Source of the DNA: Nemertoderma westbladi | Taxonomy: Eukaryota > Animalia > Xenacoelomorpha | NCBI GenBank assembly: GCA_032718475.1 | Contig: JAUCBJ010008829.1 | Coordinates: 102,464-166,463, forward strand | Direction: 5' to 3' | DNA length: 64,000 bases | Shown here: positions 1,854 to 64,000 of the stretch, piece by piece | How positions within the stretch are numbered: position 1 is the stretch's first letter | How the letters are laid out: each line of letters opens with the position of its first letter | Notes under the pieces: generated by a model | The model's input: only the letters and a program-made list of their open reading frames with translations | Told to the model about the DNA's origin: nothing | Databases searched by the model: none | Position numbers and translations under genes: made by a program

Positions 1854-3454
1854 TGTTCGCGGTATTTCAATTTTCCATAACGCGAGTTGAATATTTTTGT
1901 ATTTATTTAAAATTGATTATTCCGATATTACTACTGGGTGCGGGACCATGGGTTTTGGGCACATTCAATAAACTGGGGGCGATTTATGGGCGAACTTTGG
2001 GGCAACTTACAGGGTACGGGAATAATTTCATAGTTATAAGGGCCAGGGGGGGATGGAAAATGCAAGCAGTATTCAGGTTAGCCTGAGTACTATTAGGCCC
2101 TGGCCAACTTCCTGCTGCCTGTAGGGGTGGATTTGGTAATGCGCCAGGCCTAAAGGACAAGGACTGCCCTTAGCGGTCCCTGGCCAACAGCAGCCATTAC
2201 GAGACTGAAAAGAACTCGGACCGCTGACTGCTTGTGTCAGGGATTTGCGACGGGCACCGACGGCCCCTTAGTAGCCAAGCCGTTCTGGTTCTCGATGATC
2301 GAACCCCGGGGTTCGTGAGGGGTGGAGCGGACACGCGAACGGGTGGCCAACTAACGACTGCCCCCTGACCTAAGCCGTACTGGTTCTCGATGACCGATCC
2401 CTTCGGGGTTCGCGAGGGGTGGGACGGACATGCGAAAGGGCTGGCCACAGGACGGGTTTGACGAGAACTGCCCTTAGCGGTCTCTGGTCAACGGCAGCTA
2501 CTACGAGACTGAAAAGAACTCGGAACGCTGACTGCTTGTACTGGGATTTGCGACGGGAACCGACGACAGACCCCTTAGCCAAGCCGTACTGGTTCTCGAT
2601 GATCGTTCCCTTCGGGGTTCGTGAGGGGTGGAACGGACACGCGATGGGGTCGAAAGACAAAGGACTAGACTCGACTAGACTCTACTGGCCTACCGACTGT
2701 TCGGAGCAGTTTCTCGGCTGCCGAAGCGACTACGAGCCTGAAACGGACTCGGAAAGCCTAGGTGGTTGGGTTTCTGTGATGAACCGACGGACCCCTAGCC
2801 AAGCCGTTCTGGTTCTCGATGATCGAACCCTTCGGGGTTCGTGAGGGGTGGAACGGACACGCGAACGGGTCCACCGACACGACAGACTCCTAGCCAAGCC
2901 GTACTGGTTCTCGATGACCGAACCCTTCGGGGTTCGAGAGGGGTGGTACGGATACGCGACAGAGTCTACCGACTGGACCGACCCTTAGCCAAGCCGTGCT
3001 GGTTCTCGATGATCGTTCCCTTCGGGGTTCGTGAGGGGTGGAACGGACACGCGACAGGGTCGACCGACACCGACACTACGGCACTAAGACTGGGACCGAG
3101 GGAAAATCTGGGGAACATTAGGTAGGCTAAAATTCTGAGCGAATAGTGGGTTATTAAATAATATACCGTAGGGATTTCTATTATCGTGTATAATTATTTG
3201 GTGTATATTGATTTGGGGAAGCCCAAAATTATTCTTAATCAAGTTTCAATGATGTTGAACGGGTTTCAACTATAGGAAGTTACATTAAAGAGTATATCCA
3301 ACTAATGCAGCTTTTTATCAACCGCAAACTTGCATCTCAGAAAATATTCCCTCCCCACAATCAATATCCGGTGACTGGCCGGGGCTCGGTGGTCTGTTAA
3401 GTCACGTCTCCAGCATCGGCGTTTTTCCCCCCTGGTGTAGGGATAACGGCAACA
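1854..3454 (+). mobile_element. 3' LTR of element A (about 1.6 kb), inserted into the protease region of copy B1
   Basis: Polypurine tract GGGGGGGA (1845-1852) precedes TGTTCGC at 1854. The segment ends GGCAACA at 3454, and B-family coding sequence (NALLDSGSTG) resumes abruptly at 3455. Confidence 0.8.
2163..3075 (+). repeat. Array of structured hairpin repeats inside LTR A (six type I units of about 80 nt, two type II units of about 95 nt)
   Basis: Type I core TAGCCAAGCCGTWCTGGTTCTCGATGAYCGWWCCCTTCGGGGTTCGTGAGGGGTGGWACGGACACGCGA at about 2272, 2371, 2576, 2796, 2891 and 2986. Type II at about 2163 and 2468. ACCGAC-like linkers separate units. Confidence 0.9.
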
Positions 3455-6400
3455 AACGCCCTCCTGGACTCCGGTAGCACAGGAACATTCATCGATAAAG
3501 ATCTAGCCGAGGACATCTTTGCTGGACAACCCAAGTTCCGAACCAAGCTAAAAATGTCAGGAATCATGCAGGTTTGGAAATCTACTGTAGCTGCCGACTA
3601 TTATGTAGGTGCGTTGTCCACTCCACAGGATAAACTAGGAGAACACAGTATAAGGTCAGTAAAAATGGTAGCAATAAAGAACTTCGCTACCACCCAAGTG
3701 GAACCTTATAATTGGGATGAAGATGATCATGCCCAACAACTTAACATCCCTAGATTAGACACCGATTATCCTGGAGTACAAATATTAATCGGTCAAAACA
3801 CGCATGAGGCGCTGGAGACATTGGAGAAACGACCTGCTCAACCGCAACCACTTCAGACCTATGCGGTAAGAACTAGAGTAGGTTGGTACCTTACTGGACC
3901 TTCCCGTAGAACGCTCAGAGAAAGACTACCTCAAGATCGCGTCTGCCAAGTGAGTGAATGGGAAGATGATACTAGTGAGGGAGACGATCCAACTGAGGGA
4001 ACTCCATACTCCTCAGATAACGACGACGTCCACCAACTCTTCGACGAGGAGAATACCATTGATCTCCTTAAGGAAAACGAGACTTGGCAAAACCAAGTGA
4101 ACCTATGTCAACTCCTCCATCCATCAGAGCGAGAAGCGTATAATGACGAGCTAAATGACGTCATTGAACGTTATAATGCCAAGACTCGGGATGAACATGC
4201 CGTACGATTCTTTACGCAAGAGGCGGTAGAGCCCAATTCCTACGATAAGGCCTTAGCGGTGGAAGAGGAAAGGGCCAAGCAGATCCAAGAGACAACTACA
4301 CGTTTCCTCAAAGATCAAGGTAGGTATGAAATCGGTCTACCTTTCCGCAAGAGAGAACCGAAGTTCATCAATAACAGACCCTTGGCGGAGAAAAGAATCG
4401 CGCAACTCCATCGACGCCTTACGGCAAATTCTTCAGCTAAAGAAATGTATCAAACACAGCTGAAGAAATTTATCAGCAAGGGATATGCGGAGCGAGTACC
4501 GGAAGAAACACCTATAACTGAAAGAACGTATTACTTAACTCACCATTACGTTCCCAAACCCGGTAAACCACATGAAGTGAGAGTAGTGTTTGATGGCTCC
4601 GCTCTCTACATGGGCCAATCCCTTAATTCTGAATTGTTACCCGGACCCAACTTACTTCAATCCTTGTTGGGAATTCTTTTAAGATTGAGACAATACTCAA
4701 TCGCTTTCGCCTCAGATATAGAAGGCATGTTATTACAAGTCAAGGTGCTGGATAGGGATCGAGATAGCCTACGATTTCTGTGGTGGCCCGAAGGAGACCT
4801 CAACCAGAAACCGGTGGAGTACTGGATGACCATCCAGGCCTTTGGGATAATCTCAAGCCCTTCCAACGCCTGTTCAGTGGTGCGTACCACTGCGGATGAC
4901 AACCGTGAAGCCTTCTCTAAGGAAGTGATTGACAACATCAAGCGGGACATATACATGGACGATAATCTGAAGTCCCTTCCATCAGTTGAAGAAGCCATTG
5001 AGGTCAGTAAAGGAACGGTAGAGTGCTTAAAAAAGGGTGGATTTCGATTAACTAAATTCACCAGCAACTCCCGTGAGTTTCTGGAGTCAATCCCTGTAGA
5101 AGATCGAGGAGCGAAAGACCTAGATTTAATCAAGGATGATCTTCCAGAAACCAAGACACTCGGCTTGAAATAGGACACAGAGAGAGATATCCTGTTTTTC
5201 CAGCTAAAACAGCGAGATAATCCAGTTCGAACCAAACGGATTTGTTTAAGTATACTGAGCACTTATTTCGATCCATTGGGATTTATAAGCCCAGTTATAT
5301 TGATTGCTCGGAGTTTGGTACAACAAATGTGGCTTGAAAACCACTCATGGGACGATCCACTTAAGGGAGAATTATTAAAGAAGTGGATGAAATGGGAAGA
5401 TTCTCTGCCGGCCATCGAGGATTTTATAATTTCCCGTTCATATTTTGGTCATGTTCTCCCTACGTATTCCTATCAACTCCATGTGTTTGGAGATGCCAGC
5501 GATATGGGAATAGGTATAGTAGCCTACCTAAGAGTGGAAACTCCGGATGGAATCAAAGTCTCCTTGGTTACCTCTAAGGCATTAATCAACAATAAGTTGA
5601 AAGTTCCTCGAGCGGAGTTAAAGGCGGCTCTATACGCTACAGCCATCGGCCGGAATGTAACCGAACAGATCGATTATCCATTAGAGAAAACTGTCTATTG
5701 GACCGACGCTTTACTCGTGTTAGAGTATATAACCAATGAAGTCTGTCAGTTCAGCGTCTTCGTTACCAACAGAGTAGCCATCATACATAGTCGCACGACG
5801 ATGGATCAATGGAGACATTGCCCCGGAACGATTAATCCAGCAGACATCGCCTCCAGGGGAGCGACTCCACATGAATTGGTAAATACTCCAGAATGGTTAG
5901 GTGGACCCGACTTCCTCTACAAAGAAGAAGAAGAATGGCCTCCCCATCTTACAACCGCAGAGATTAGATAGGCCAAGGGAGCGGAGAAAGTTAAACCTAA
6001 AACTCGAGTGAGTAAATCGAAGTTATTTAAACCTACGGTCGATCTATCTGTATTACTTACTTCCGGAGATGACGCTTTGGATCAGAAGCCCACAGCCACA
6101 AATAAAGAGGTATTGGAAATCCGTGACAAGGATTGGAAATCTGGAATACCAGACATCTCGCAAGGACTCTCACCTCTACTTCAGAGAGCGATACATCACT
6201 ACAGTTCCTGGAATCGGCTCTGTAAGGCCGTCACATATTTAAAACGATGCTTTCATCATCATTACTCCAGGACGAAGACCAATAGTGATGCCGTTGTTAA
6301 AGATCTTCCCAAATACAAGATATCCGACAGGTTTCTAAAGGAGAAGATCAGTTACCAGGAGCATGAGGAAACCAACAAGCAGATACTGAGACTCCTACAA

Positions 6401-7810
6401 TGCTATGAAGATTCCGATAAGTATTTCCTGTTGTTGAGAAATCCGCAGATGCGCTTAAGGGATCGTTTCTCTAGTACAATGATAGATGGGTTAATACGCG
6501 TTGGAGGACGGCTAACTAACGCGCCATTATCCTTTGACACTAAGTTTCCCATACTCATTAGAAATCTTGACATACAAATCAAGATGATTGTAGACGTCCA
6601 TAGCAAACTGTACCATGCTGGTAGAGAACGAGTTCTTAGCGAAATTCGAACTCGCTACTATTTTTATAAACCCTGTAGAGCTCTGAACCAAGTTCTTAGG
6701 AACTGCATACCCTGTAGGAAAGCATTCAGTAGGCCTTTAACACAGCGAGAGGCAGAATTACCTAGGGAACGAGTAAGCTTCTATGAACCACCCTTTACTA
6801 ATACCGGTGTGGATTTATTTGGCCCCATTGAAGTATATCGTGCCAGGACTATAGTCAAGAGATGGTGTGTCATCTTCGTTTGTATGACTTGTAGAGCTAT
6901 CCATCTCGATATGGTGAACGATCTATCTACCAACAGCTTCGTGTTAAGTTTACGACGACAGATCGCTCGCTTCGGAACTAGTAACACGATGAGATCGGAT
7001 AAGGGAACGAACTTCATTGGCGCCAACAACGAAATTCAAGCTTACGTAAAGGACTGGAACCAAAGACAGGTGGACGACCAACTAAAGGTGACAGCGTCTA
7101 GCTGGACCTTCAACGCCGCCGACGCCCCTTGGTGGGGAGGAAGTTGGGAGAGATTGATTAGGAGCGTGAAGACTGCATTCCACTTTATAGTGCCGTGTCG
7201 CGCTTATCTCACCGACGAACTCTTGCGGACGTTAATGGAGGAAATCGCCGCCTATCTCAACGAAAGACCGCTTATGCCAGTCTCTTCGAGTCCTGATTCC
7301 CTGGAAGCGCTAACACCCGCGCACTTTCTACTGAAGAAACCCATAGCCATGCTCCCACGATCGGAGATCACAGACGGAGACGAGTACTGCCGTCAAACTT
7401 GGCAACTTATGCAGTTGCTATCCCGTCGTTTCGCTGACCATTTCGAGAAACATTATCTGCCCACTCTACAACTTCGAACTAAGTGGTTTGCGCAGCAAGA
7501 AAACGTCAGCGCTGGAGACATGGTGCTTATTGTGGACCCCGATCTTCCACGTAAGCGATGGCAAACAGGTCGTATCATTGAGACACATATCTCGAGCGAT
7601 GGTTTGGTGCGATCGGTAGAACTCGTCGTCATGCGGCGTAACTTCAAGAAACCGGGGATATTCTTTGAGACGCAACAGCTCAATCGCCCAGTGGGTCGTT
7701 TATGTTTACTGGAAAGAGACAGAGAACTCTCCGGAAACTATGGAAGGCAAGATACTCTTCCCACGACCACCTCCCTAATTCAACCAACATCTAGGGGCTC
7801 CCCAACATAA
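3455..7810 (+). pseudogene. pol: B1 pol (protease, RT, RNase H, integrase), single frame with two premature stops
   Basis: ORFs at 3554, 5276 and 6008 share one frame. Motifs ALLDSGS, YMDD, HVFGDAS, VPRAEL, YWTD, NPADIASRG, HHCC, GVDLFGP, SDKGTNF, GGSWERL. TAG stops at 5171 and 5969 correspond to Trp and Gln codons in B2/B3. Confidence 0.95.
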
Positions 7811-7828
7811 TATCGTTCGGAGTGGGCG

Positions 7829-8315: not shown

Positions 8316-8331
8316 GTAGCGTAAACCGCAA

Positions 8332-8660
8332 ATAAATCTGTTGAACCCTTTGACCATCTGTAATTCTAGTCGATTAAGATATCGTGGCACCCACCGATAT
8401 ACTTGAAAGACAAATTCTAGAATCAGTGGTTAACGTCCCCAGACAAGTTCTGGAATAAATTGGTGCCCATCTTAAATATTAATTATTTAATATTTACAAA
8501 TCTATATCTAAAAATCTGTAAAATTCAGATCCTTTAACAATTCTAGTCGATTAAGATATCGCAGCACTTACCGATACTCTTAAAAGACAATTTTCATAGA
8601 ATTAAGGATCCTATGTCCCCAGAAATGTTCTGGAATCAAATCGTGTCAATTTTACTATTA
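8332..8660 (+). repeat. Diverged direct duplication (period about 178 bp) in the B1 3' region
   Basis: AATTCTAGTCGATTAAGATATCG...GTCCCCAGA...TTCTGGAAT occurs at about 8362 and 8539. Confidence 0.8.
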
Positions 8661-10876
8661 AATAATAAAATTCACGGGAATAAATTTAAATTCATACCTT
8701 TCAATGAATTTAATAAATTGCCATTTTACGCAATTTATAACATTCCCAAAATTCCATTAATTAATAGATCACGGGAGCGGAGATTTATCCTATCAAGCGT
8801 ATTAGTGTGCGAGAATCTCCCAGACATAGTCAATAGCCGATAAAATTCATAAAGTCATGTATAAAAGGATATTGACCATTAAAGAATTACTATTAAATAA
8901 CATCCCAGATCTGTATGCATTGGAATTACCCTAATTCTACCGCTAGCTTTGCATAATGTCACCATAGCAACACCCACGCTAGAATTAGAAGCGAGTTAAA
9001 AGAACAATAGAAAGCTTGCCCATTGAATAGCATAGGGAATAAATAGCACACTGCTAGTATCCCAGGATACATAATAATAACGTGAAATTCTGGAAGGCAC
9101 TGACTAACGGACAAGTGGCCCGAGTGTGTGTAATTTGTGACAAGTTGTGTGTGTGGTATTTGTGAGTTTATAGGCGAATGTTACTACTAAGGTGTGTTTA
9201 CAGTAGCAAGTTGCAATTGTGAAAGTAACCCTAACTCTCCAGTAAAAACCTGAAGTGTATCTAAGCCTTTGGGACAGACAGTGGAGTGACTCGTGCTAGT
9301 GTCGTTGTCATTGTGTGGCTACAACGTTGGTGAGGGCACAGTGGCGACGATACGACGATACATCTGCGCTGAGGATCTTACACTTTCCGGGGGCTGATTG
9401 GGGTAGGCAGCGACGCTCGCTAGCCTAAATATAAACTCATTATAATATTAATAAACTCATATATAGCAGATATGACGGAGTTGATAGAAGATGGTCTTGG
9501 TATCAGGGAGCGATATACTCTACTTTCAAGCGTTTGTTGATAGCTTGATACGCGGTGATACTAGTCCAACTACTACGGAGGATGATGGTCGTTATATCGA
9601 ACCGACGATTTCCTGGAAGCAACTTACGCGTGAATTGGACTATGGAAAATTCACCACTCGCTACACACATCGTAATGGTATGTATATGGACTTCTTAACC
9701 ATTGGCCATTCTATCGATTTACACGATACGGACTATGTCGAACATATCCTACCCAGCGGAGTCGAAACGATAAACCGAAATTCGAATGCGAAAATCCTAT
9801 TCGAAATCGACTCGAAAGAAAGACATTAAAGAAACAAATAAACGCGGTAACTCCAACATATATTTGGAATTCTTGATAGAAGCATTGTAACAACAAATAA
9901 ATATCATCCGCGTTTCCCCTACCAGACGTGCGTCTTTGATATTATTACGATAAATGCCCTAGACCCAACTAATAAACGGAAAGACATAAACATCCACGGA
10001 AACGTTGTGCTAAACACAGTTGTACTTGTTATATTTACTGGAGTTTCGAACGAAGCTTATTCGACGTATCACCTACGCTCACTCGGCTCAAACAGTCCTT
10101 GAGTGAACCTTTGATCGGAGTTCCGGAATACTCGGTCAGACCACCTCGTTCTTGATTAGACCTCAGATTTTCGATTCTGATGGTATCACGGATCCTCACG
10201 GACTGTATTCACTGTTCCAAGATCTAGTGCTACCCTAACAATTAATCGGTAACACTCCGACAGTGATCTCTAGCTATCCGCCCATCTTACCTAGCCGGAT
10301 TGGGACGTGGACACCTAATATCACTATCCAACCGTATGGTCGTCCCCGTTTAACGCAATACAACCCTTCATCAAGGTGAAGGAGAGCGTTGTACGAAACG
10401 AGTTAAACGCTACTCTATAAAGATCAAAAAAGAAACCTGCGTTTGTTCAGATAAACGTAAGTTATAACAGCAAGTCCAATCGATAAACGAATTGGCTTTA
10501 TCTCAGTTCGATTGGGAAATCTCGAATCTCTAAGAAGATATCGAGCTTAGAAAACCCTATTCTCTGCGAGAGTTTTGGACGAACGTATCCCATGACAAGC
10601 GGAGGAAAATCAGCTCGAGGAGAAGCATATCGAAATGGACGAGACACCGACCGTAAACCCAAACCTTCTAATGCAATTGTATTGCACCTTTTACCCAGGA
10701 GTTATAGCCTTCCTAGTAAAGTGGCTCGCCCCAAAGAGAAAAGGACTCTTGCTGGCCTCGGGAAACTGCGTGAACGCCGTCCGCGCAAGAAAAACTAACT
10801 GTTTAGAGTATCTTTATGTTTTAGAAACTGTGATTTTTATATTTTATAGACTGAAAATCCCATTTTCTGGGAGCGG

Positions 10877-12085
10877 TGTAAAAGCTTTTGCGGAATTGCC
10901 CGGTTATTTTTCCTTATTTTTCCCGTAAAATACTTTGTAGTTGGTTTAGTAGGCGTAAGAGGCCATATTATTGCTGTATCGGTGTTTTTTAGAGGACCTA
11001 AGAGCTATTTCTTCCGTATGTGTACTTTGGAAGACATGGTTGGTGATTCTATGGCAATTCTATGACGCAAAATAGCTAGATCCTCTTGAAACAGTAGTTA
11101 CTATGACGACGGTTAACAGCTGAGCTGTATACGTGTCAATTTTCTTTGTTCTACGGTGTCTCTTAGTTCAGTCAACCAATCAGAGCGTTTTTACTGCTCT
11201 TGTACAGAAATTTCCTAGAAATCACGCAATGCTTTATGGGCAGTGTTTACATTCAGTCCTGAGCCCAAGAAAGAACGGCTTTTGGAATATCTGTGTTTTC
11301 AGCTCTTTAGCCCAACACTAGTAGGCTTAATTATAGGGACATATATCCGTTATCTTACTGACCTAACTCAACTGGGCAATGCATATATCTTATCGTACAT
11401 ACTTTTATATCGTTATACTGCTATTTACTGTCGGTTATTCACTATATATGGTTGATGAAATATTATATTTGGAATAACGAGAAATAATCACGAAACCCCA
11501 ATATTCTTGATATACCGAAGGTAAGAGAGACCGGTTACATATAACGATTGCGACTTATGTTAAAGTGGTTTGAAGTGAATCTAATGTTATTTGATAGACC
11601 CTACATGAGTCGGTCTGTGTTCCTTTTATATGTGACTAAAATTAGTGAAGATCGGCAGATTGGTGTGCAGTATTGTGCAGCATTGTTTATGAGTGAGACT
11701 GATAACGAAGCATTTCCTAAAGAATGCGCCATATATGTGAATTATAACTAAGCCATATCGTTGTGTGTAGTTTAAGTCATAACTCTGTTTATATAGATAG
11801 AACGCCACGTCCTAAAGGAACTGTTAATATTCCCCGAAGGTGAATAATATTTGTCAGAGATTATATAATACGATCAGTCGAATAATACAGTAGGCTTACA
11901 TAGCAATACGATTAAGCCGTCGAACCCAATCTCCCGGGTATATCAAGCGGGTGAATGATCACGCATAGATTGGTTTCGACTAGTGTAGTGAATCAAATAT
12001 TTGTCATAGGCTAAAAGCGATTTATTATCTAGAAGACATCCTAATTTGGCGGGTTAAACTGCCAAAGGTCTTAAAAGCGCGAACA
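10877..12085 (+). mobile_element. 3' LTR of B1
   Basis: TGTAAAAGC start after PPT GGGAGCGG and end AAAAGCGCGAACA. The 3' half aligns with the LTRs at 18070-19340 and 30022-31308; the U3 part is more diverged. Confidence 0.9.
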
Positions 12086-12159
12086 TACTGTATTATTGTA
12101 TATTGTGTAGTGGTGGTGGTTGTCTATTGTGTGTGCTATATATATATATATATGACCCT

Positions 12160-18024: not shown

Positions 18025-18069
18025 CTAATCTAATCTAATCTAATCTAATCTAATCTAATCTAATCTAAT
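18025..18069. repeat. (CTAAT)9 microsatellite abutting the B2 LTR
   Basis: Nine perfect CTAAT units end at the base before TGTAAAAGC. Confidence 0.95.
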
Positions 18070-19340
18070 TGTAAAAGCTTCTGTGGGATATAACTAGTCC
18101 TTCGCTCCGCAATCCAGTTTTCCCCCGTGCGCTCAAATACTCTAAAACCTACTGTAAAAGCGTTTACGGATATAATCCGTTCCCTGGCCCGCAAAGTACC
18201 GTATAGGTGTTTTTAACGGACATAAAAGTAATTCTTCTGGATGTATACTTTAGCGGACATAGCAAGGTACAAAAACCCGCCATACGGCATTTTCTCTATC
18301 ACCATATCGTGGGAAGGATTCAGATTACGACATCTACCAGCTGACTACCAGCTGACGTGGAAGGGGCCATTGGACACATGGTTTCTTTGTTCCGCTTAAC
18401 AGCCAATCAGGGTGATGTTTACTTTTACCTGTGAAGACATTCTACGGATGTGGCGGATGTCAGTGTTGGTTTTATTCTAGGCCACAAGAACGGCTCTGGA
18501 ATCACTTGTTTTCAGACTTTATAAGAAACATTAGTAGGCTTAGATTATAGAGTGTATAACTGTTATCATACCATATCACAAGTCACACATATTAACAATC
18601 ATACCGGTCCAAATCATACCAATCATACGGGACATACTTATCATATCTTAACCTACCGTCTTACTGCTTTTACTGTTTGTAATTATTTGTGTCAGTTAGT
18701 TGGATGTTATTAGTTGAAGAATATCGAGAAATAACCCAAATTTCCCAATCTTCTTGATACACTACAGGTTAGAGAGACAGGTTACATAACGATTGCGACT
18801 TATATTATTGTGGTTTGTAATGAATCTAATGCTATTTGATAGCCACTACGAGTCAATTGCTGTTCTCTTTATGTGTGATCAAAGTCAGTAACTGTCGGCA
18901 AACCAGTGAGCAGTATTGTGCGGTACCGGTAGTGTGTATGATTGTGGTTGATAACTAAGCATTTCCTAAAGAATGCGTCTCATACGTGAATTCTAAGCCA
19001 TATCGTTGTGTTTAGTATAAGTCATAGCTTTGTTTACATAGATAGAGCGCCACGTCCTAAAGGAACTGCTAATATTTCCCGAAAGTGAATAATATTTGTC
19101 AGAGATTATATATTGGTGATCAATCGAATAATACATGTAGGCTTCACTGCAATAAATCTAAGCATACGAATCCAGTCTCCCGGGTGTAACCATCGGGTGA
19201 ATGAACGCGCACAGGCTGGCTTCGGCTAATGTTGTGTTTATTTTGTATTAAATCTTGTCATCTTATAAAGTCAATTTACCAACTAAAGACATATAAATTT
19301 TGGCAGGTTAAACTGCTAAAGGTCTCCAAAAGCGCGTACA
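18070..19340 (+). mobile_element. 5' LTR of B2
   Basis: TGTAAAAGC...GCGCGTACA termini, CCAAT box near 18400, homologous to three other LTR copies. Confidence 0.92.
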
Positions 19341-19351
19341 ATAACAGTTAT
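19341..19351 (+). promoter_or_regulatory. Non-tRNA primer-binding-site position in B2, complementary to LTR 18556-18566
   Basis: ATAACAGTTAT is the reverse complement of ATAACTGTTAT. No TGG follows the LTR. Confidence 0.75.
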
Positions 19352-19384
19352 TGATCTTATTGCAGTAAGCAATAAGGTTGCAAA

Positions 19385-19535
19385 GTACCGGTCGACCGGT
19401 AAACCGGTCGACTTCTGTAGGTCAGTAGGCCCAACTGCCAGAACCGGTACTGCTGTAGGTCCGTAGGTCCAACTGCCAGAACCGGTACTTCTGTAGGTCA
19501 GTAGGCCCAACTGTCATAACCGGTACTGCTGTATA
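19385..19535 (+). repeat. 38-bp tandem repeat (about 3.5 units) in the B leader; also at about 31350-31505
   Basis: Unit ACCGGTACTKCTGTAGGTCMGTAGGYCCAACTGCCAGA. Confidence 0.9.
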
Positions 19536-20260: not shown

Positions 20261-21429
20261 TAATATTTATTATTCAGAGTTTATGCGATTACTCGCAACA
20301 TTCATGTCCCCAAGTTTATCCCTACAGTAATTGTGTTTGTTATACATACCGTTATAGTTAAATTAACCCCGGTACTACACGGGCTGCTTGGTGTAGGTAA
20401 AGACTGGTGACTTTGTGCCCCGGTCACTCCAGCAGATGCTGTGGTTCTTTTAACTGTTCAAGTATATTTAACTGCTGGTTATCTGTTTTTACAAGTACTT
20501 GTACCTAATTTAGGGTTTAGTGTACTAGTTGCTTTCCGAAAGTAATTAGTGTAGGCATTATATTTGTGTTGTAAAGTGGTTGATAGGCACGTTCGTTAGC
20601 TCTATTAACTTCTAGGTAGGAACACTCCGTGATACATAACGTAGTACCTATAGCGATACGGCTGTAGGTCGTCAAGCGGTGGTATTTTTCTATCTGGACA
20701 ATGCAGTATATTTACTTCTGCTTATTATTTTCAAATACCGTAGTATCCTATCCGTTGTAATAACCAGAAGTTCTAACCCTTTGTTAGACTGGTTCGTAGT
20801 TTCCCTGTTAAATTGCCCTAAAAATTCGTACGTATAGTTTTTTCGTGTGTTTATTAGAGATTGTAATCTCACCTATATTGTACGTAATTCGTAGATAAGT
20901 AACGTAGGCCAGTAGAATTATTCGTTTTAGTGTCCAATAAGTAGCACTCTCACTGAGAGCGCACAGCTTCTGTGTAGTGATTATTTCCCAGAAATAGTAA
21001 CATCTATTTCAATATTGTAACAAAACCCCTCATACGGGTACATATAAATCCACTAAATCTATTAATAAAATAGTAGGCCTGTCATACAACAATTAGGTCT
21101 CAATATCAGTTGGACTTACTGCTTGAATAACGGTAATAGTGTAAACTAAAGTAACTAAGTAAACCTATAATTTCAGAAATTTAATTATTCTAAATAATTG
21201 ATATACCGGTACCTATAATAGGCTTATTATATATTTGTATATATTTGCACTGAAATTATATACCGGTATTCTGTGACAAACCTAGTCTGCAATACTTATA
21301 TACTATAAGTGTATACCGGTATTCTAATATATTGTAATTAATTACCGGTACTAGGCCTACAGTCATACTGAATTACTAGACTTGCTTTAACTGTAATATA
21401 GCAGTAGGCATTCAACTGTACAAACAAAC

Positions 21430-23898
21430 ATGTCTGACACAACCCAAACACTGTCAGATAGTCTCTTAGAAAGTGCTAGAATGAGTGTTAGACAGGGTCT
21501 TAAAAAGATCTGGGACTCAGCTAAGAGTATAGAACGTCTGAGACCAAAGTCCAAGTCCCCTCCTACTGTAAGCAAGGTCATCCCTACAGTAGTAGTGTCA
21601 GACCCTAGGCTAGTAGAACAACGTAAGTCTATCCACGGCACTCAGTCCCAAATCGAGCGGGATCAAGAAGCAGCTGTCAAACAGCAGCAACATCCTAGCC
21701 AAGAACCTAGTTCTCAGCGGCCCGATAGCTCCAGTAGTTCGGATACTGTTGAGCGGATGCCCGAACGCGGAGCGAAGATGGCGGATACGGTTTATGATGA
21801 GCGGCCAACCTTTGAAGAATCAACCGACGCCACTTCTTCTCAAGTGGAAAGCAAAGTGGAAAGCGAAGTGGAAAGCGAAGTGGAAAGCGAAGTGGAAAGC
21901 GAAGTGGAAAGCGAAGTGGAAAGCGAATTAACAGCAGCAGAGAAGCCGCGAACTAGAGATGCCATTGACATCTATCTGTCAGACTATCAACGTTTTGTCG
22001 GAGACGAAGAGTTGAGGAGACGGCTAGATGGACTTAGCCCTAATAGTGAGGGTGCCAAGCTTGTTTTGGACGCAATCGATGTGGATAGGATAGCTGCGAA
22101 CCAAGCTAAATTTGAGGAACAACTCCGCATCACTAGAGCCCAAGAGGAGCAAGTAAAGAAAAGACGAATAGAAGATCGAAAAGCAGCAGCAGTGGCAGCG
22201 GCAGAAGCAGAAAAAAGGGCAGTGGAGGCAGAGGCAGAAAGAAAGGCTGCAGCGGCAGAAGCAGAAAGAAAAGCGGCAGAAGCAGAAAGAAAGGCAGCAG
22301 AGGCAGAGGCAGAAAGAAAGGCTGCAGTGTCAGAGGCAGAAAGAAAATCGGCAGAAGCAGAAAGAAAGGCAGCAGAGGCAGAGGCAGAAAGAAAGGCTGC
22401 AATGGCAGAGGCAGAAAGAAAATTGGCAGAAGCGGAACGGAGAGTGTCTGAAGAAATCACTCAACTAGAATTGGAAAAGATTCAGGAAAGTCAATTGAGT
22501 ATAAATAGACAGTTAACAGCCAGTAATATGCAGATGATGAATCGGTCTACTCCCAAGCGACAGGGATTTACCTCCTCTGATGAAGGCGACACCACTGATC
22601 CTGAAGGCGGAGGACATAGATCTCGTCTAAGTAGACGTAAAAGAACGTCTCCCCGTCAGAAATTGCCTGATTTGCCTCCAGCTGTTAGAAAACAGCTAGC
22701 TAGCACCGCCGTAGCGATTACAGAACACACAGACCGAATTGTTACTGTAAGTAGACTCCCTACTATAACAGATGAGCCTGAAATAATTAGGCCTGTTCTC
22801 GAAGCCACCACTTCGGTGCTAGAGACACCTGTATTCCAGGGAGCAACCTCCAAATTCCCTTTACACAGCACGAAACTATCTGTGCCTAGTAGAACAGCCC
22901 CTGAAATGGTTCCTGTCATGGACTCCGAGCGAATGGATTGGTCGCCCGTAGTTCCTCGCCCGCCCGCCACAACGTTTGCGACTCCTGCTTCGGCGGTCGA
23001 GTGGGTGGAGGAGGGACGGAGGGGGATGAATGTCCTGCTCGGACAGATGCAGGAGACGGTCCACCAGTTCAAGGGAACAGTCAGGGAAAGTAGGTTAGAG
23101 CTGCAAGAAGTGCAGCAAAGTATCGCGCTAGAACGCGATAAATTAGTAAATGTAAAAAGGGGCATACCAACACCCCCTGTAACAATGTGTCAACCTGTTT
23201 GGCCTGAAGTATTTCATGCGCAAGGTGTGGAGCCTACACGCATCTATACTGCTAGCGAAGTAGAAACTCCTATAGCAAACCCTATTAAGGGTGATTATAA
23301 ACCTGTTTGTAATGATATTCCCTATAGACCTGATAATAATCCGAGAAATTTATATACCGATAATTCGATATTAAATAACACGATGGCCCAAGAAAGTTTT
23401 ACGCGTCAGATGGCTAGAACAGAAGCCCGCCAAGCGGTCAAAGTGGGAGAAATCGTCAAATTCAATGGAGATGAGATGAAATGGTTACCGTTTAATGAAT
23501 ATTACGAAGATAGCATACAGAACTCTGTACTATCTAGCGGAGAGAAACTGAGATTCCTCATCAAATGTTTGGAAGGACCTCCCAAGTTAATGGCGTTGAA
23601 GTTTATTGGACATCCAAATGGATTAAGACAAGTTTGGGATACATTAAACACCAGGTATGGTAATAAGGATAACATAGCTAAGTATTTGTATGCAAAACTA
23701 GTAGCCCCCCGAAAGTTCCTTAGTAACGAGATTATAGAGTTTTCCGATGAGATTCAAGAGATCTGCCGACAATTGGATTGGTTAGGTAAGTCTCATGAAT
23801 ATCAGAGTTCTATGGTTATTGGAGCCATAGTCTCTACTTTACCAAAGGGTGGAGTATGTACTCGCTGGGACAAGAAAGTGTTGTATATGACAAGATGA
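21430..23898 (+). CDS. gag: B2 gag, truncated before the zinc knuckles (822 aa)
   Basis: Homologous to B3 gag, with Pao gag core KFNGDEMKW...EKLRFLIKCL and VESE and AEAERKA repeats. Homology to B3 stops at about 23890. Confidence 0.85.
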   Translation: MSDTTQTLSDSLLESARMSVRQGLKKIWDSAKSIERLRPKSKSPPTVSKVIPTVVVSDPRLVEQRKSIHGTQSQIERDQEAAVKQQQHPSQEPSSQRPDSSSSSDTVERMPERGAKMADTVYDERPTFEESTDATSSQVESKVESEVESEVESEVESEVESEVESELTAAEKPRTRDAIDIYLSDYQRFVGDEELRRRLDGLSPNSEGAKLVLDAIDVDRIAANQAKFEEQLRITRAQEEQVKKRRIEDRKAAAVAAAEAEKRAVEAEAERKAAAAEAERKAAEAERKAAEAEAERKAAVSEAERKSAEAERKAAEAEAERKAAMAEAERKLAEAERRVSEEITQLELEKIQESQLSINRQLTASNMQMMNRSTPKRQGFTSSDEGDTTDPEGGGHRSRLSRRKRTSPRQKLPDLPPAVRKQLASTAVAITEHTDRIVTVSRLPTITDEPEIIRPVLEATTSVLETPVFQGATSKFPLHSTKLSVPSRTAPEMVPVMDSERMDWSPVVPRPPATTFATPASAVEWVEEGRRGMNVLLGQMQETVHQFKGTVRESRLELQEVQQSIALERDKLVNVKRGIPTPPVTMCQPVWPEVFHAQGVEPTRIYTASEVETPIANPIKGDYKPVCNDIPYRPDNNPRNLYTDNSILNNTMAQESFTRQMARTEARQAVKVGEIVKFNGDEMKWLPFNEYYEDSIQNSVLSSGEKLRFLIKCLEGPPKLMALKFIGHPNGLRQVWDTLNTRYGNKDNIAKYLYAKLVAPRKFLSNEIIEFSDEIQEICRQLDWLGKSHEYQSSMVIGAIVSTLPKGGVCTRWDKKVLYMTR

Positions 23899-27429: not shown

Positions 27430-30021
27430 CCTTCCATCGGTAGAAGAAGCCATTGATGTCGTGAAAGGAACGGTAGAGTGTTTGAAAAGAGGTGGATTTC
27501 GACTGACGAAATTCACCAGCAACTCCCGTGAGTTTCTGGAAGCGATACCGGTAGAAGACCGAGGAACGAAGGATCTCGACCTAATAAAAGACGATCTTCC
27601 AGAAACCAAGACGCTTGGCTTGAAGTGGGACACGGAGAGAGATATCCTGTTTTTTCAGCTAAAACAGCGAGAGAATCCAGTTCGGACCAAACGGATTTGT
27701 CTAAGTATCCTGAGCACTTATTTCGACCCATTGGGATTTATTAGCCCAGTCATATTGATTGCTCGGAGTTTAGTACAACAAATGTGGCTTGAAAACCACT
27801 CATGGGACGATCCACTTACGGGAGAACTGTTAAAGAAATGGATGAAATGGGAAGATTCTCTACCTGCCATCGAGAGTTTTATAATTTCCCGTTCATATTT
27901 TGGTCATGTTCTCCCTACGTATTCCTATCAACTCCATGTGTTTGGAGACGCTAGCGATATGGGAATAGGAATAGTAGCATACCTTCGAGTCGAAACCCCG
28001 GATGGAATCAAAGTCGCCTTGGTTACCTCTAAGGCATTGATTAACAACAAGTTGAAGGTTCCTCGAGCGGAGTTAAAAGCGGCTCTCTACGCTACAGCCA
28101 TCGGACGGAATGTCACGGAACAGATCGATTATCCACTGGAGAAAACTGTTTATTGGACTGACGCTTTGCTCGTGTTGGAGTATATAACCAATGAAGTCTG
28201 TCAGTTCAGCGTCTTTGTTACCAACAGAGTGGCCATTATCCTTAGTCGAACAACGATAGATCAATGGAGACACTGCCCTGGTACGATTAATCCAGCCGAC
28301 ATCGCCTCCAGAGGAGCAACTCCACAGGAACTGATAGATACTCCAGACTGGTTGGGTGGACCCGACTTCCTGAGCAAGGAAGAAGATGAATGGCCTCCTC
28401 ACCTTACTACAGCGGAGATCAGACAAGCCAAGGGAGCGGAAAAGGTCAAACCTAAAACCCGAGCGAGCAAATCGAAGTTATTTAAACCGACGATCGATCT
28501 ATCTGTATTACATGCTTCCGGAAATGATGCTTCGGATCCACAATCCCTCGTCACAAACAAGTCTGTTGTGGAAATTAAGGATAGAGATTGGAAATCTGGA
28601 ATACCAGACGTCTCGCAAGGAATCTCACCCCTGCTGCAGCGAGCAATACATCATTACAGTTCCTGGAATCGGCTCTGTAAGGCCGTCGCATATTTAAAGC
28701 GATGTTTTCATCATCGTTATTCCAGGACGAAGACCACTAATGATACTGCTCCATTAACATCGGTCCAAGTTCATGTTATTAAAGATTTACCTAAGTATAA
28801 AATATCCGATCGGTTTCTAAAAGAAAAGATCAGTTACCAGGAGCATGAAGAAGCCAATAAACAAATACTGCGACTCCTGCAATGCTACGAGGATTCCGAT
28901 AAGTATTTCCTGTTGTTAAGAAATCCACAGATGCGCTTAAGGGATCGCTTCTCTAGCACAATGATAGATGGATTAATACGTGTTGGAGGAAGGCTGACTA
29001 ATGCGCCATTATCCTTTGACACTAAATTCCCCATACTCATTAGAAATCTTGAAGTACAAATCAAGATGATTGTAGATGTTCACAGTAAACTTTATCATGC
29101 TGGTAGAGAACGAGTTCTTAGCGAAATTCGAACTCGCTATTATTTCTATAAACCCCGTAGAGCTCTGAACCAAGTTCTTAGGAACTGCATACCCTGTAGG
29201 AAAGCATTCAGTAGGCCTTTAACACAGCGAGAGGCAGAATTACCTAGGGAACGAGTAAGCTTTTATGAACCACCCTTCACTAATACTGGTGTGGATTTAT
29301 TTGGCCCTATTGAAGTATATCGTGCTAGGACTATAGTCAAGAGATGGTGTGTCATCTTCGTATGCATGACTTGTAGAGCCATCCATCTTGATATGGTGAA
29401 CGATCTATCTACTAACAGCTTTGTCTTAAGTTTACGACGACAGATCGCTCGCTTCGGAACTAGTAATACCATGCGATCGGACAAGGGAACGAACTTCATT
29501 GGTGCCAACAACGAAATCCAGGCTTACGTGAGGGACTGGAACCAAAGACAGGTGGACGATCAGCTAAGAATAACCGCGTCTAGCTGGACCTTCAACGCCG
29601 CCGACGCCCCTTGGTGGGGAGGAAGTTGGGAGAGATTAATCAGAAGTGTTAAGACCGCATTTCACTTTATAGTGCCGTGCCGTGCGTATCTCACCGACGA
29701 ACTTTTGCGGACGTTAATGGAGGAAATCGCTGCCTATCTCAACGAGAGACCGCTTATGCCAGTCTCATCGAGTCCCGATTCCCTGGAAGCGCTAACACCC
29801 GCGCACTTCCTACTAAAGAAACCTGTAGCCATGCTCCCACGATCAGAGATCGCCGACGGAGACGAATATTGCCGTCGAACTTGGCAACTTATGCAGTTGC
29901 TATCCCGTCGTTTCGCTGACCATTTTGAGAAGCATTATCTGCCCACGCTACAACTTCGAACTAAGTGGTTTGCGCAGCAAGAAAATGTCAGCGCCGGAGA
30001 CATGGTGCTTATTGTGGATCC
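27430..30021 (+). pseudogene. pol: B2 pol 3' half (end of RT, RNase H, integrase); no internal stops, both ends broken
   Basis: ORF 27461-30088 is near-identical to B1/B3 pol. Homology ends at MVLIVDP, where the B3 LTR begins. Confidence 0.92.
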
Positions 30022-33000
30022 TGTAAAAGCTTCTGTGGGATATAACTGGCCCCTTTGCTTCGCAATCCAGTTTCCCCCTAGGCGCTGAAATACTCTAAAG
30101 GGGTTCTCTAACTGTATATATATTCCCCTTGCCCGCAAGGTACCGTTACAGGTGTTTTTAACGGACATAAAAGTCATTCTTCTATATACGTGTTTTAGCG
30201 GACATGGTAAGGCAAAAAACCCGCAATACGGCAATACTTTTACACAGCTTAGCCGTGATGATTCAGATTACGACATCTAACAGCTGGTTGCTTAAATGGA
30301 AACAGCCATTGGACGCATGGTTCTTTGTTTGGCTTCAGCCAATCAGAGCGATTCTCTCTGTCGATGTGGAGCTTTGAGACGATGATACTGGGATTCTTCA
30401 GTCTTACAGTTTTTTACTGATACTTTGTTGTTATTGCTGTCTAAGCCAGAAACACCGGCTCTAGAGTTAATTGTTTTCATACTTTAGAAGAAACATTAGT
30501 AGGCTTAAGATTATAGAGCGTATGACTGTTATCAATTCAACTCAAGTCAATTCATATATCACATATCGGTTCATATCAGTACATTGTCATATCATATCTT
30601 AACCTACCGTCTTAATGTTTTTACTGTTGTCATATTTTATATCAGTTGATTGAATATTATCTGGAGAACATTTATAAAGAACCCAAATTTCCCAATTTTC
30701 TTGATACACTACAGGTTAGAAAGACGGGTTATATATAGCGATTGCGACTTATATTATTGTGGTGTGTATTGAATTTAATGCTATTTGATATGCACTACAT
30801 TGGTCTGTTGCTATTTTCTTTATATATGATAAAATTCATTGACGGTCGGCAAGTTAGTGAGCAGTATTGTGTGTTACCGGTAGCGTGCATGATTGTGGCT
30901 GATAACTAAGCATTTCCTAAAGAATACGCCTCATACGTGAATCATAAGCCTTACCGACTTACCGTTGTGATTAGTGTAAGTCATATCTCTGTCTATCTAG
31001 ATAGAGCGCCACGTCCTAAAGGAACTGTTAATATTTCCCGAAAGTGAATAATATTAGTCAGAAATTATTTATTAACGATAAATCGAATAATACAATACAG
31101 TAAGCTTCACTGCAATAATAATCTAAGCCGACAGAATCCAGTCTCCCGGGATTATCCAGCGGGTGAATGGACGCGCACTGGGCTGGCTTCTGCTAATGTT
31201 GTGTTTATTGGTATTAAATATTGTCATCTTCTAGAGTCGATTTATAAACCAAAAGACATATAAATTTTGGCAGGTTAAACTGCTAAAGGTCTTCCAAAAG
31301 CGCGTACAATAACAGTCATTGACTTTATTGCAGTAAGCAATAAAGTTGAAAGTACCGATCGACCGGTAAACCTGAACCGGTACTTCTGTAGGTCAGTAGG
31401 CCCAACTGCCAGAACCGGTACTGCTGTAGGTCCGTAGGTCCAACTGCCAGAACCGGCACTTCTGTAGGTCCGTAGGCCCAACTGTCCTAACCGGTACTTC
31501 CAGTATAAGTACATTAGTATTATTCGATTTTGATTATAGTATACCGGTAGGTCTTAGTATTTAATCAGGGAACGGCCGCCCTGGTTTTTATTGAGATTTT
31601 ACTTATTTCTGTCGGTTTTATTTCCTAGTAAGTAAATATTGAGCTGAAGACGTGTAAGTCTGCTCAGATTGTTCAGATAACTGTAGGCCAGACTGTTGTC
31701 GGATTGTTGTTGGGTTTGGAGAAATTACGGCGTGTGTGGAGTTTGTCCGATAGAGTGCCAGTTAGTAAGTTGGGGCAACTTGAGTGTAAGGTCAACCCCC
31801 TCTTAAAGAATAAGTCGTACTACCGTGTTAGAACGCATACTAACTAACAATTTTGGAATCTGCACATACTGTAGTTTATTTAGGCTTGACAGTATTCTGC
31901 CAGCGTTTTGGCTTGTGTTTGTTTGTGTGATCTGTTCAGGTACCGTAATAGTTATTACTCAGATATTTTGTAGGCTGGATTGTTGTCTAGCTATTATTAG
32001 GTCTGAAGAGATTGCTGCTTGTGTAGAGTTTGTCTGATAAAGTGCCAGTTAGTAAGTTGGGGCAGTCATAACTGTAAGGTCAATCCCCTCTTAAAGAATA
32101 AGTCGTACTACCGTGTTAGAACGCATACTAACTAACCGTTTTGGAATCTGCACATACAGTAGTTTATTTAGGCTTGGTGGTAGTCTGCCAGCGTTTGGTT
32201 TGTATTTTGTTTGAGTATTCTGTACGGGTAGCGTAATATTTATTATTCAGAGTTTATGCGATTATTCGCAACATTCATGTCCCCAAGTTTATTCCTACAG
32301 TAATTGTGTTTGTTACACATACCGTTATAGTTAAATTAACCTCGGTACTACACGGGCTGCTTGGCGTAGGACAAGACTGGTGACTTTGTGCTTCGGTCAC
32401 TCCAGCAGATGCCGTGGTTCTTTTAACTGTTCAAGTATATTTAACTGCTGATTATTTGTTATACCAGTACTTGTACCTAATTTAGGGTTTAGTGTACAGT
32501 GCTTTCCGAAGTAATTAGTGTGTAGGCAGTATATTTGTGTTGTAAAGTGGTTAATAGGCACGCTGGATCTGGTAGTCCGCGGTAATTAACTTCTAGGTAG
32601 GAACAATCCGTGATACATAACGTAGTACCTATAGCGATACGGTTATAGGTCGTCAGGCGGTGGTATTTTCCTATCTGGACAGTACAGTATATTTACTACT
32701 ACTTATTATTTTCAAATACCGTAGTACCCTGTCCATTGTAATAACCAGAATTCTAACCCTTTGTTAGGCTGGTTTGTAGACTTCCTGTAAAATTACCCTA
32801 AAAAATTCGTACGTAATATTTTTGTTGTGTTTAACTAGAGATTTAATCTCACCCGTATCGTAAGTAATTTGTAGTATTAAGTAACTTAGGTAAATTAGAA
32901 TTATCAGTTTTAGTGTCCCATAAATAGCACTTCACTGAGAGCGCACAGCTTCTGTGTAGTGACCCCCCAGAAATAATAACATTTATTTCAAATATTGACA

Positions 33001-36000
33001 TAACCCTTTTAAACGGGTATATATATATATTATAAATCAACTCAAACGATTTATAAGTAGTAGGCCTGCCATACAACAACTAGGTCTCAAAATCAGTTGG
33101 ACTACTGCTTAAATAACGGTAACAAAGTAAGTTAGAGTAACCAAGTAACCTAAATATTCAGAGGTTCGATTATTCTAAAATAATTGACATACCGGTATTT
33201 ACCATAGGCTTATTATATTTATTCCTATAAATTTGAGCTGAAATCATACCGGTACTCTGTAATTAATTCTAGTTCATAATTATACTTATATATACTATAA
33301 GTGTAAGCTGTATACCGTTATTCACGATAAGCCTATTATATATTTATATATATTTGTGCTAAATTTATATACCGGTACTCTGTGACAAACCTAGTTTACA
33401 ATACTTATATATACTATAAGTGTATACCGGTATTCTAATATACTGCAATAAATTACCGGTACTAGGCCAACGGTCATACTGAATTACTAGACTTGCTTTA
33501 ACTGTAACTATAGCAGTAAGCATTCAACTGTATAGCTAAACATGTCTGACACTCAGAAAAACCTGTCAGACAGTCTAATCGATACAACCATCTGTGACAC
33601 AGATAGGAGTGTAGAGCGATTAAGAAAGGAGTTCAGTTCACCTCCTACTGCAAGAAAGGTCATCCCTCCAGTAGTATCAGACCCTAGGCTAATCCACCAT
33701 AGGTCCATCATAGGTACTCGGGCCCAGGTCAAACGGAACCAAGAGGCAGCTGTCCTATCGCAGCAACATCTTGGTCAAGAACCTAGTTCCCAGCGATCCG
33801 ATAGCTCCAGTAGTTCGGATACTGTCGAGCTGACCCCCGAACGCGGATTGCAGATGGCGGCTACAGCCTACTCGGACCCTCTTCTCACCCTTCCTGCCGC
33901 AGTGCTAACCACTATATTGATTGCGGTGGAGGAACATCAAGCAGATTGGGCGAGGAATAAGAAAGCGACCCAAGATAATTATGCGGGATACGCCAGGGAA
34001 GAATTGATGTCTATTGTCGAGTCACAATGGAACTTTCCCGGACCTGGACTCCCGTTAGATCTGTCCGAAGCTACTTGGGAAGATATACACCGGATGGGAG
34101 TGACTAAAGATACAATGGATCCAGCTGTTTGGAAGAGGTCGGCAGCAGGATATGTGCAAGGGTTCTTCGGCTCCTTAGAGTGATTAGAAGAACAACTGTT
34201 TCGACAACCCCAAGGACCTCAAGAGCAGGAAGAGCTGCTATATCAAGTGCGCGAAAGAACCCTACGCATTAGACTAATTCTGTCAGCCTTTGAGGAAACT
34301 TCCAAAAGAAGACAGGACACGTCGCTGCAGGTTTCTGTTAAGACTTGGTTCCAGAGGGTAGGTCGCAAAGTGCAAGAAACGGACCAGTGGAAATCCCAGC
34401 TGTCTGAGAGACTAACTTATGAAAAACCAACCGATGCCACCCTTTCTGAAGTGGAAAGCGAAGAGACTGCAGAAAGACCACGAACGAGAGACGCCATCGA
34501 CATTTACCTATCCGACTATCAGCGATTCCTAGGAGACGAAGAGTTGAGGAGACGACTGTCTGGACTTTCCCCTAATAGTGAAGGAACCCAGCGGGTGTTA
34601 GACTCAATCGACGCTGAAATGTTGGCGGCTAATCAAGCTGAATTTGATGAAAAACTCCGCCTCACTAGAGTTCAAGAAGAACGAGTAAAGAAAAGGAGGA
34701 TAGAGGACCAAAGGGCAGCGGCAATCGCAGAAGCCGAAGCAGAAAGAAAGGAGGCAGCGGCAAGGGCAGAAGCAGAAATACAAAGAAAGGCGGCCATGGC
34801 AGAAGCAGAAATACAAAGAAGGGCGGCGGCGGCAGAAGCAAAGGCGGCCATGGCAGAAACAGAAGCAAGGGCGGAAAAGGCAGTAGCGGAAGCAGAACGG
34901 AGAGCGTCTGAGCAGACTACCCAACTGGAGTTGGAGAAGCTGCAAGAGACGCAAGACAACATAAATAAACAGTTAACTGCTAGTCACATGCAAATGATGA
35001 GAAAATCTACTCCCAAACGCCAGGGCTATACTTCATCGGAGGAAAGCGAAACCACCGATCCTGAAGGCGGAGGAAATAGATCTCGTCTAAGCAGGCGTAG
35101 AAAAACATCTTACCGTCACAAATTGCCTGATTTGCCCCCAGCTGTTAAAAGACAACTAACTAGCACAGACTTAGGTAGTGCAGAACCCGTAGAACAATTT
35201 ATCCAGGTCAAAAGACTCCCTACTATAGTCGATGAACCTGAAATAATTAGGCCTGTCGTTCCCAAAGTCACTTCTGTGCTAGAGACCCCTGCACTTCCAG
35301 AGCTTAACTCTAAATTCCCTTTGCATAGTACCACACTGCCTGTACCCGGTGGAACAGTCCATGCAAATACCCCTGTCCTGAGCATTGAGAGAGGAATCAA
35401 AGATTTGTCTCCCGTCGTCCCGCGTCAACCCGCTAAAATGTTGGCGACTCCCGCTTCGGCGGTTGAGTGGGTAGAGGAGGGACGGCGGGGGATGAACCTC
35501 CTGCTCGGACAGATGCAGGAGACTGTCCACCAGCTTAAGGGAACAGTAAGGGAAAGTAGGGCAGAATTACAAGAAGTGCAGCAAAGTATCGCACTAGAAC
35601 GCGATAAATTAGTCAATATACAAAAGGGCATACCAATACCCCCTGTAACATTGTGTCAACCTGTTAGGTCTGAAGTATTACATGCGCAAGGTGTGGAGCC
35701 TACACGCATCTATACTGCTAGTGAAGTTGAAACTCCTATAACAAACCCTATTAAGGGTGATTATAGACCTGTTATTAATGATATTCCCTATAGACCTGAT
35801 AATGATCCGAGAAATTTATATGCCGATAATTCTATATTAAATAACACGATGGCCCAAGAAAGCTTTACGCGGCAGATGGCTAGAACAGAAGCCCGCCAAG
35901 CGGTCAAAGTGGGAGAGATCGTCAAATTCAATGGAGACGAAATGAAATGGTTACCTTTCAACGAATATTACAAAGACAGCATACAGAACTCTGTGCTATC

Positions 36001-41494: not shown

Positions 41495-41500
41495 ATGTAG
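33542..41500 (+). pseudogene. gag-pol: B3 single-frame gag-pol polyprotein with three premature stops
   Basis: ORFs at 33542, 34247, 36344 and 39524 share one frame. Three Cys/His motifs (CALCDGTHRLSAC, CYNCLRPGHQRRTC, CEKCGAKHHILLH) typical of BEL gag, plus ALLDSGS, YMDD, RNase H and DDE integrase motifs. Confidence 0.95.
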
Positions 41501-44330: not shown

Positions 44331-44374
44331 AAGTGAAGTATTTTTGTAAATTTTGTGAATTAGGTGAAGTATTA

Positions 44375-48968: not shown

Positions 48969-49096
48969 CATTTTAATAACACGGTCAGGTTGTTCTTTTT
49001 AGTTAGTTTGAGATTGTAGAGCACAACTCAGTAATACAGTAATCCTCTTAGTATAATACAATGTTTCTGTCATGTAGAATCTAGAATATATTTCTA

Positions 49097-63951: not shown

Positions 63952-64000
63952 TGTACGCGCCTTTATAGACCTTCAGCAGTTTAACCTGCCGAAATTTATA
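63952..64000 (-). mobile_element. 3' terminus of a fourth family-B LTR (continues beyond the window)
   Basis: The reverse complement TATAAATTTCGGCAGGTTAAACTGCTGAAGGTCTATAAAGGCGCGTACA matches the other LTR ends and fixes the LTR boundary. Confidence 0.85.

Follow-up and report, generated by a model that had tools for sequence, protein, structure and literature searches.

The window, by which we mean the whole 64-kb stretch of DNA analysed here, contains a nest of decayed BEL/Pao elements. One family, designated family B, is represented by three full LTRs, those of B1, B2, and B3, and by the terminal 49 nt of a fourth LTR (63952..64000, minus strand). The full LTRs start with TGTAAAAGC at 10877, 18070, and 30022, and all four copies end in GCGCG(T/A)ACA, at 12085, 19340, 31308, and 63952 (minus strand). 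The 5' LTR of B2 (18070..19340, plus strand, 1271 nt) has TG...CA ends, and that of B3 (30022..31308, plus strand, 1287 nt) is inserted into the integrase region of B2; each leads through a 2-kb leader into a DUF1759 gag. The B1 feature (10869..12085, plus strand) comprises the polypurine tract GGGAGCGG and an LTR (10877-12085), which, judging from the tract that precedes it, is a 3' LTR. The B2 and B3 LTRs are 84% identical, and that of B1 is 76-77% identical to either of them; the corresponding values for pol are 93% between B2 and B3 and 86-89% between B1 and the other two. Public contigs covered the B1 LTR at high depth and the sequence beyond it at near single-copy depth. Among the variants and loose ends listed for these contigs, none lay at 11343-11353 or past 12085, a listing that has no bearing on the B1 site described below or on the B1 PBS. 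No metagenome, viral, or genome contig matched a degenerate pattern of the LTR end.

A CCAAT box (18403..18407, plus strand, in B2) is present in all three full LTRs, 153, 183, and 166 nt upstream of the candidate primer site described below in B2, B3, and B1, respectively. The motif TAGTAGGCTTA-n-ATTATAG (18532..18550, plus strand), which is kept in 3/3 full LTRs and lies 6-24 nt 5' of that site, is likely to be a core-promoter element. Neither a conserved TATA box at -30 nor a conserved AATAAA was found in the family-B LTRs. Nine tandem CTAAT copies (18025-18069) run directly up to the B2 LTR; the unit is as long as a target-site duplication, and the second host-LTR copy has a single one at the matching position. 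Long G runs follow the end of the fourth LTR (63951-63910, minus strand).

Coding regions and affiliation of family B

The gag frame of B2 (21397..23898, plus strand), which carries DUF1759, is disrupted near 23890 by another element, and a B2 pol fragment (27430..30021, plus strand) with Peptidase_A17, integrase, and part of DUF5641 is interrupted by B3. The gag-pol of B3 (33536..41500, plus strand) encodes DUF1759, two zinc knuckles, protease, RT with the motif YMDD, Peptidase_A17, integrase, and DUF5641; it contains stop codons and its 3' end is cut off. The B1 pol (3401..7810, plus strand) has two internal stops. The assignment of family B to BEL/Pao, which had been made from the letters alone, was borne out by Pfam domains (Peptidase_A17, integrase zinc domain, DUF5641), by homologs, and by the tree described below: Peptidase_A17 or DUF1759 occurred in every one of the 120 pol homologs listed, the best of which was approximately 42% identical. 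Family B thus has a related pol, the order protease-RT-RNase H-integrase, and the domains Peptidase_A17, DUF1759, and DUF5641, together with LTRs that have TG...CA ends and a polypurine tract 5' of the 3' LTR. Protein scans of viral contigs detected no relative.

Several other elements share the window. A second BEL/Pao family was recognized at 17643-17620 (minus strand), 12333-15709 (minus strand), and 25229-27340 (plus strand). The letters CGTAACA close its 5' LTR at 17644, and the site that follows again lacks TGG. B2 contains a 2.1-kb LTR of this family that is 80% identical and carries CCAAT as well as TATA boxes. For the PBS of this second family (17643 downward, minus strand), neither the 80%-identical LTR nor its own LTR remnant yielded a primer partner. 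The interval 23891-27429, between the break in the B2 gag and pol, contains a 244-aa frame without a Pfam match in addition to a second-family purine tract and LTR. Between the B1 pol stop and the 3' LTR, 3 kb (7811-10876) contain decayed coding-like stretches, with a second purine-rich tract and then TG near 7820-7830, after the stop. Outside these elements, an open frame of 561 aa at 3-1688 has no Pfam match and carries motifs rich in Cys/His that resemble zinc knuckles, and a 674-aa frame with DUF7869 (49085-51109) lies beside tandem arrays at 47836-48970 and 51386-52170. Coding-like fragments at 43010-44359 (minus strand) resemble by eye another BEL/Pao integrase region, and had no Pfam match in the one frame scanned.

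Complementarity between the PBS and the LTR

The PBS of B2 (19341..19351, plus strand) lies immediately 3' of the LTR CA, lacks TGG, and is the exact complement of 18556..18566 (plus strand) in its own LTR, the candidate self-primer. In B3, the candidate self-primer (30522..30532, plus strand) differs from that of B2 by A>G at position 3, and the PBS (31309..31319, plus strand) shows the mirrored change, T>C at position 9. The two LTR sites, 18556 and 30522, are orthologous in the LTR alignment, and in each copy the post-LTR sequence has its longest exact reverse complement there, 11 nt long and beginning at offset 0. These observations agree with the earlier note, in which all five 11-mers had been placed correctly and which had described the four LTR ends, the exact complementarity to an orthologous LTR site in both copies, and the compensatory change between them. 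Its statement that a tRNA-type TGG is lacking was confirmed by a scan of 120 nt 3' of either 5' LTR, in which no TGG was present.

The complement was contained in 39/20000 and 18/20000 dinucleotide-shuffled LTRs for B2 and B3, respectively, and 51/60191 and 45/60191 11-mers of the window outside the LTRs had a complement in the respective LTR; the chance of an 11-nt match is, therefore, approximately 1-2 in 1000 per copy. Given the divergence between B2 and B3, and with independence assumed, the rough probability of an exactly mirrored change is 0.012 (approximately 1 in 80). The B2 11-mer is palindromic at 10/11 positions. This does not explain the match because the two B3 sites agree only when read inverted, with 0 differences as inverted repeats and 3/11 as direct repeats.

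Immediately 3' of the B1 3' LTR, 12 nt (12086-12097) form the exact reverse complement of 11881-11892 in that LTR, at a position where no pairing is expected and against a background of 5/60187 window positions. This match, which the earlier note does not mention, may be due to chance or to a templated repair insertion. Since it occurs without an expected function, a match of approximately 11-12 nt is weak evidence by itself, and the case for self-priming therefore rests on repetition, position, covariation, and context, the phased part of which comprises two copies and one mirrored change.

Variation of the PBS in public contigs

Public contigs over 19280-19395 numbered 810, 507, 286, and 9 from X1, X2, X3, and X4, respectively (1612 in total). 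The variant figures given here are shares of summed contig depth among the rows listed, with a threshold of 1%, and are not copy numbers. At PBS positions 2-8, no other letter reached 1% of summed depth, and positions 1, 9, 10, and 11 varied. The B3 letter (19349 T>C) accounted for 15% in X1, 4% in X2, and 0 in X3; it is a family allele and not merely a private change. A third allele, with changes at 19341 (6-14%), 19350 (12-35%), 19351 (22-43%), and 19353, was seen in two single contigs, behind an LTR end type that B1 also carries. Family B accordingly has at least three PBS alleles, a variety that would not be expected from a single tRNA template.

The orthologous site of B1 (11343-11353) has two mismatches to the invariant PBS core and pairs with only 5 bases of the B2 PBS (-2.4 kcal/mol). 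The PBS that the earlier note had predicted for B1 was not seen: the changes it entails (19346 A>G and 19348 T>A) remained below 1% of summed depth in the 1612 contigs. Because the LTR-end letter of B1 at 19317 was also absent, B1-type ends may be rare or unsampled, and the contigs may be blind to B1.

Predicted RNA folds

Among all partners along the LTR, the 18556/30522 site was predicted to form the best duplex with the PBS, at -10.4 kcal/mol in B2 (-8.1 for the next partner) and -12.7 kcal/mol in B3 (-8.4 for the next partner). A hairpin-loop site was rejected as a PBS partner, being weak (-4.8 and -3.6 kcal/mol) and without covariation. When the RNA was started at the 11-mer, the mean pair probability of the duplex was 0.90 in both copies, in folds that are equilibrium models of 900 nt and unreliable at such length. 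With starts up to 15 nt upstream, the duplex probability was at least 0.81 in B3 and was 0.23 at 15 nt in B2; with starts 20 nt or more upstream, it was 0 in both copies because the conserved TAGGCTTA motif was then included. On these models, a transcription start near the 11-mer would be favoured, and the start at 18556 that had been proposed from the letters thus draws computational support from the folds. When the transcript was modelled with splicing at an upstream donor-like site, the mean duplex probability was at most 0.05.

Two local hairpins were predicted beside the PBS. Every pair of an 8-bp hairpin near the LTR end (19299..19320, plus strand) is kept in 4/4 LTR ends, with one two-sided and two one-sided changes, a conservation that is not significant on four sequences (124/500 shuffles were as high). 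An 11-bp leader hairpin (19353..19379, plus strand) lies directly 3' of the B2 PBS, and its B3 version has 12 bp with altered letters. Regarding the "pretzel" of Tf1, the central duplex was predicted in both copies and the side duplexes were not predicted in both.

PBS types among related elements

An alignment of 33 pol proteins led to 97 loci. In 20 of these, the two repeats together defined an LTR end; the remaining 77 were excluded because their LTR end could not be fixed. TGG adjoined the LTR in 3 of the 20 and was lacking in 17. A quick tree of RT/RNase H sequences (43 rows), built without named reference elements, placed 16 of the 17 non-TGG loci in one clade (support 100). Family B fell outside this clade on a branch of 1.61, at an unresolved fork with the TGG loci and L027.

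In none of the 17 non-TGG relatives did the PBS have a contiguous 11-nt Watson-Crick match to its own LTR. Complementarity appeared when GT-AG introns were removed from the LTR in a junction test with strong donors and acceptors; lax sites were dropped because flank controls scored up to 12.5 with them. At offsets 0-2, 11/17 loci, L084 included, stood at 11 or fewer of 300 shuffled PBSs. With the offset limit raised from 2 to 3 after this first result, the junction score was at least 10 in 13/17 loci, or 10/14 distinct families (L084 excluded), in comparison with 0/3 TGG loci and 11/374 cross-family pairings, at least 6 of these 11 matches being among three related families. In these loci (L002, L005, L020, L026, L027, L030, L057, L068, L073, L075, L082, L083, and L086), 10-15 nt of the PBS pair with the exon-exon junction that arises on removal of an LTR intron of 67-475 nt. 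In L082 and L083, two letters before the orthologous donor differ, with mirrored differences at two PBS letters. The four others (L018, L037, L056, and L084) had no convincing self-complement, contiguous or at a junction, the best score being 8.5 (L084). Spliced models had a duplex probability of at least 0.7 in 4 of the 7 relatives folded, and the distance from primer end to LTR end was 44-214 nt in the seven relatives measured and would be approximately 774 nt in family B. As judged from these sequences, a self-complementary PBS is the rule among the non-TGG relatives. Relaxing the sites and allowing offsets 0-4 still brought out no junction complement common to B2 and B3, the top scores being 9.5 and 3.5, respectively.

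Discussion

The present analysis suggests that family B probably primes minus-strand synthesis with 11 nt of its own RNA, and not with a tRNA, in the manner of Tf1. Transcription would begin at, or within approximately 15 nt upstream of, 18556/30522, so that the 11-mer at the 5' end of the RNA could fold back over approximately 780 nt onto the PBS; the RT/RNase H of the element would then cut after the 11th paired base, and the new 3' end would prime a strong-stop DNA of approximately 770 nt. Of these steps, we hold transcription from the 11-mer to be less secure, and about as likely as not. Plus-strand synthesis would copy the attached primer and thereby move changes in the LTR site into the PBS. 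In Tf1, the primer is copied into the PBS during plus-strand synthesis, and such recopying would by itself produce covariation. The self-priming reading of the earlier note stands in part: complementarity, covariation, and the lack of a tRNA PBS support it, and the PBS that it predicted for B1 did not appear. Other points that weigh against a Tf1-like primer are the misfit of the B1 site to the invariant PBS core, the missing TATA box and AATAAA, the pretzel side duplexes that were not predicted in both copies, and the long distance from the presumed primer end to the LTR end. Since family B has a high copy number, the claim is directly testable by phasing the LTR site and the PBS.

The 11-nt match might have arisen by chance, aided by an AT-rich, near-palindromic motif. 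The palindromy of the B2 11-mer, the poor fit of the B1 site to the PBS core, and particularly the exact 12-nt match between the unique 3' flank of B1 and its own LTR speak in favour of such a coincidence; however, chance would have to place a match of 1-2 in 1000 exactly at offset 0, keep it in two LTRs that are 84% identical, and add the mirrored change, all in an element that lacks any other primer site and whose relatives are self-complementary as a rule. We regard this explanation as quite unlikely. We consider it very unlikely that the primer is a host RNA fragment (for example, half of a tRNA that was cleaved in its anticodon loop) annealed to the invariant 7-nt core of the PBS, with the LTR match being secondary. 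The invariance of positions 2-8 beside variable positions 1, 9, 10, and 11 speaks for such a primer, and six bases of the core are, we presume, complementary to the anticodon loop of tRNA-Asn(GUU), which we count in its favour. Priming by half-tRNAs is also known in Ty1/copia lineages, although among plant elements it is confined to Ty1/copia in the sections of that source available (PMC6317226). A fragment of this kind would form approximately six Watson-Crick pairs as opposed to 11 for the LTR site of the element itself, and would not account for the way in which the B3 LTR site changed in step with the PBS. No tRNA genes were found in the 64-kb window or in 48 loci.

It is also conceivable, although unlikely, that the duplex is real and serves a structural or regulatory role, shielding the PBS or forming dimers, and that the primer comes from elsewhere, for example from a splice junction. 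Relatives use complements made at junctions, the PBS sits between two conserved hairpins, and the LTR alignment brings together donor-like sites (18262/30207) and acceptor-like sites (18515/18550). Against this, B2 and B3 share no junction complement, and splicing at the upstream donor removes the duplex in the transcript models. We also rejected the acceptor-like AG at 19305-19306 as part of a spliced primer: the donor is weak, and B1 has GG in place of the AG. Because this GG retains the hairpin pair, the conservation of the AG reads as structure.

Taking the contiguous self-primer of family B together with the junction complements of its relatives, we lean slightly towards the view that a broad branch of BEL/Pao in aquatic invertebrates dropped tRNA priming and adopted two designs, a primer spliced from an LTR intron in most elements and an unspliced, Tf1-like primer in family B. 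On this reading, host splicing would gate reverse transcription in the spliced-primer elements, and the primer of family B would depend on transcription starting at the right place. The three superfamilies of LTR retrotransposons would then all have acquired self-priming, BEL/Pao possibly on two occasions. If family B is self-primed, the mechanism of Tf1 would reach a third superfamily and a second lineage of RT/RNase H, the element would be independent of the host tRNA supply and, presumably, of silencing by tRNA fragments at the PBS, and the failure of TGG-based PBS searches to find such elements would be explained.

Priming by tRNA-Arg or tRNA-Gly in BEL/Pao has so far been assumed and not demonstrated. 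The classification of BEL/Pao in PMC3118150 is, in the portion available, based on protease, RT, and integrase, and the words primer, PBS, and tRNA are absent from its main text. PBS and tRNA are absent from PMC554778, "self-prim" is absent from PMC13524379, and the term self-priming occurs once in PMC3601003. No report of self-priming in BEL/Pao was found in the literature covered, outside which lie subscription journals, Repbase reports, and GyDB.

Among known systems, the ICTV profile of Belpaoviridae/Semotivirus describes tRNA-primed elements with an 18-nt PBS for tRNA-Arg or tRNA-Gly (PMC8742986). Family B resembles them in its gag-pol, the order protease-RT-RNase H-integrase, the LTRs, and the polypurine tract, and differs in lacking the 18-nt PBS (PMC8742986). 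The junction relatives and family B both lack TGG and have a PBS complementary to their own LTR RNA; however, the complement is contiguous in family B, whereas that of the relatives arises only after splicing, inside the transcript. Self-priming has also been predicted for Tcn1 and the TAR lineage of Ty1/copia, for which the criterion, in the excerpt available, was a complement of at least 10 nt that starts 0-5 nt after the 5' LTR (PMC6317226). As far as the excerpt describes them, the TAR lineage (Houba and Osr-1) and the Tcn1 clade share a complement of this kind with family B, and differ from it in belonging to other superfamilies and in plant hosts.

The closest parallel is Tf1, for which self-priming was shown and from which it was proposed to extend across Tf1/sushi, with the complementary segment located at the 5' end of the RNA in the portions of these sources available (10.1101/2022.12.06.519325, PMC5341516, PMC4600332). 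Tf1, Tf2, Tj1, and Tf1/sushi elements, to the extent that the same portions describe them, resemble family B in having no tRNA PBS and in carrying, after the LTR CA, a PBS complementary to their own 5' LTR. Tf1/sushi elements are Ty3/gypsy chromoviruses, whereas the pol of family B is of the BEL/Pao type and has no chromodomain match in Pfam. Family B is, therefore, not a member of Tf1/sushi but probably works like Tf1, and its predicted architecture, in which a loop of approximately 780 nt is closed by the duplex and local hairpins flank the PBS, takes the place of the three-duplex pretzel described, in the accessible text, for Tf1.
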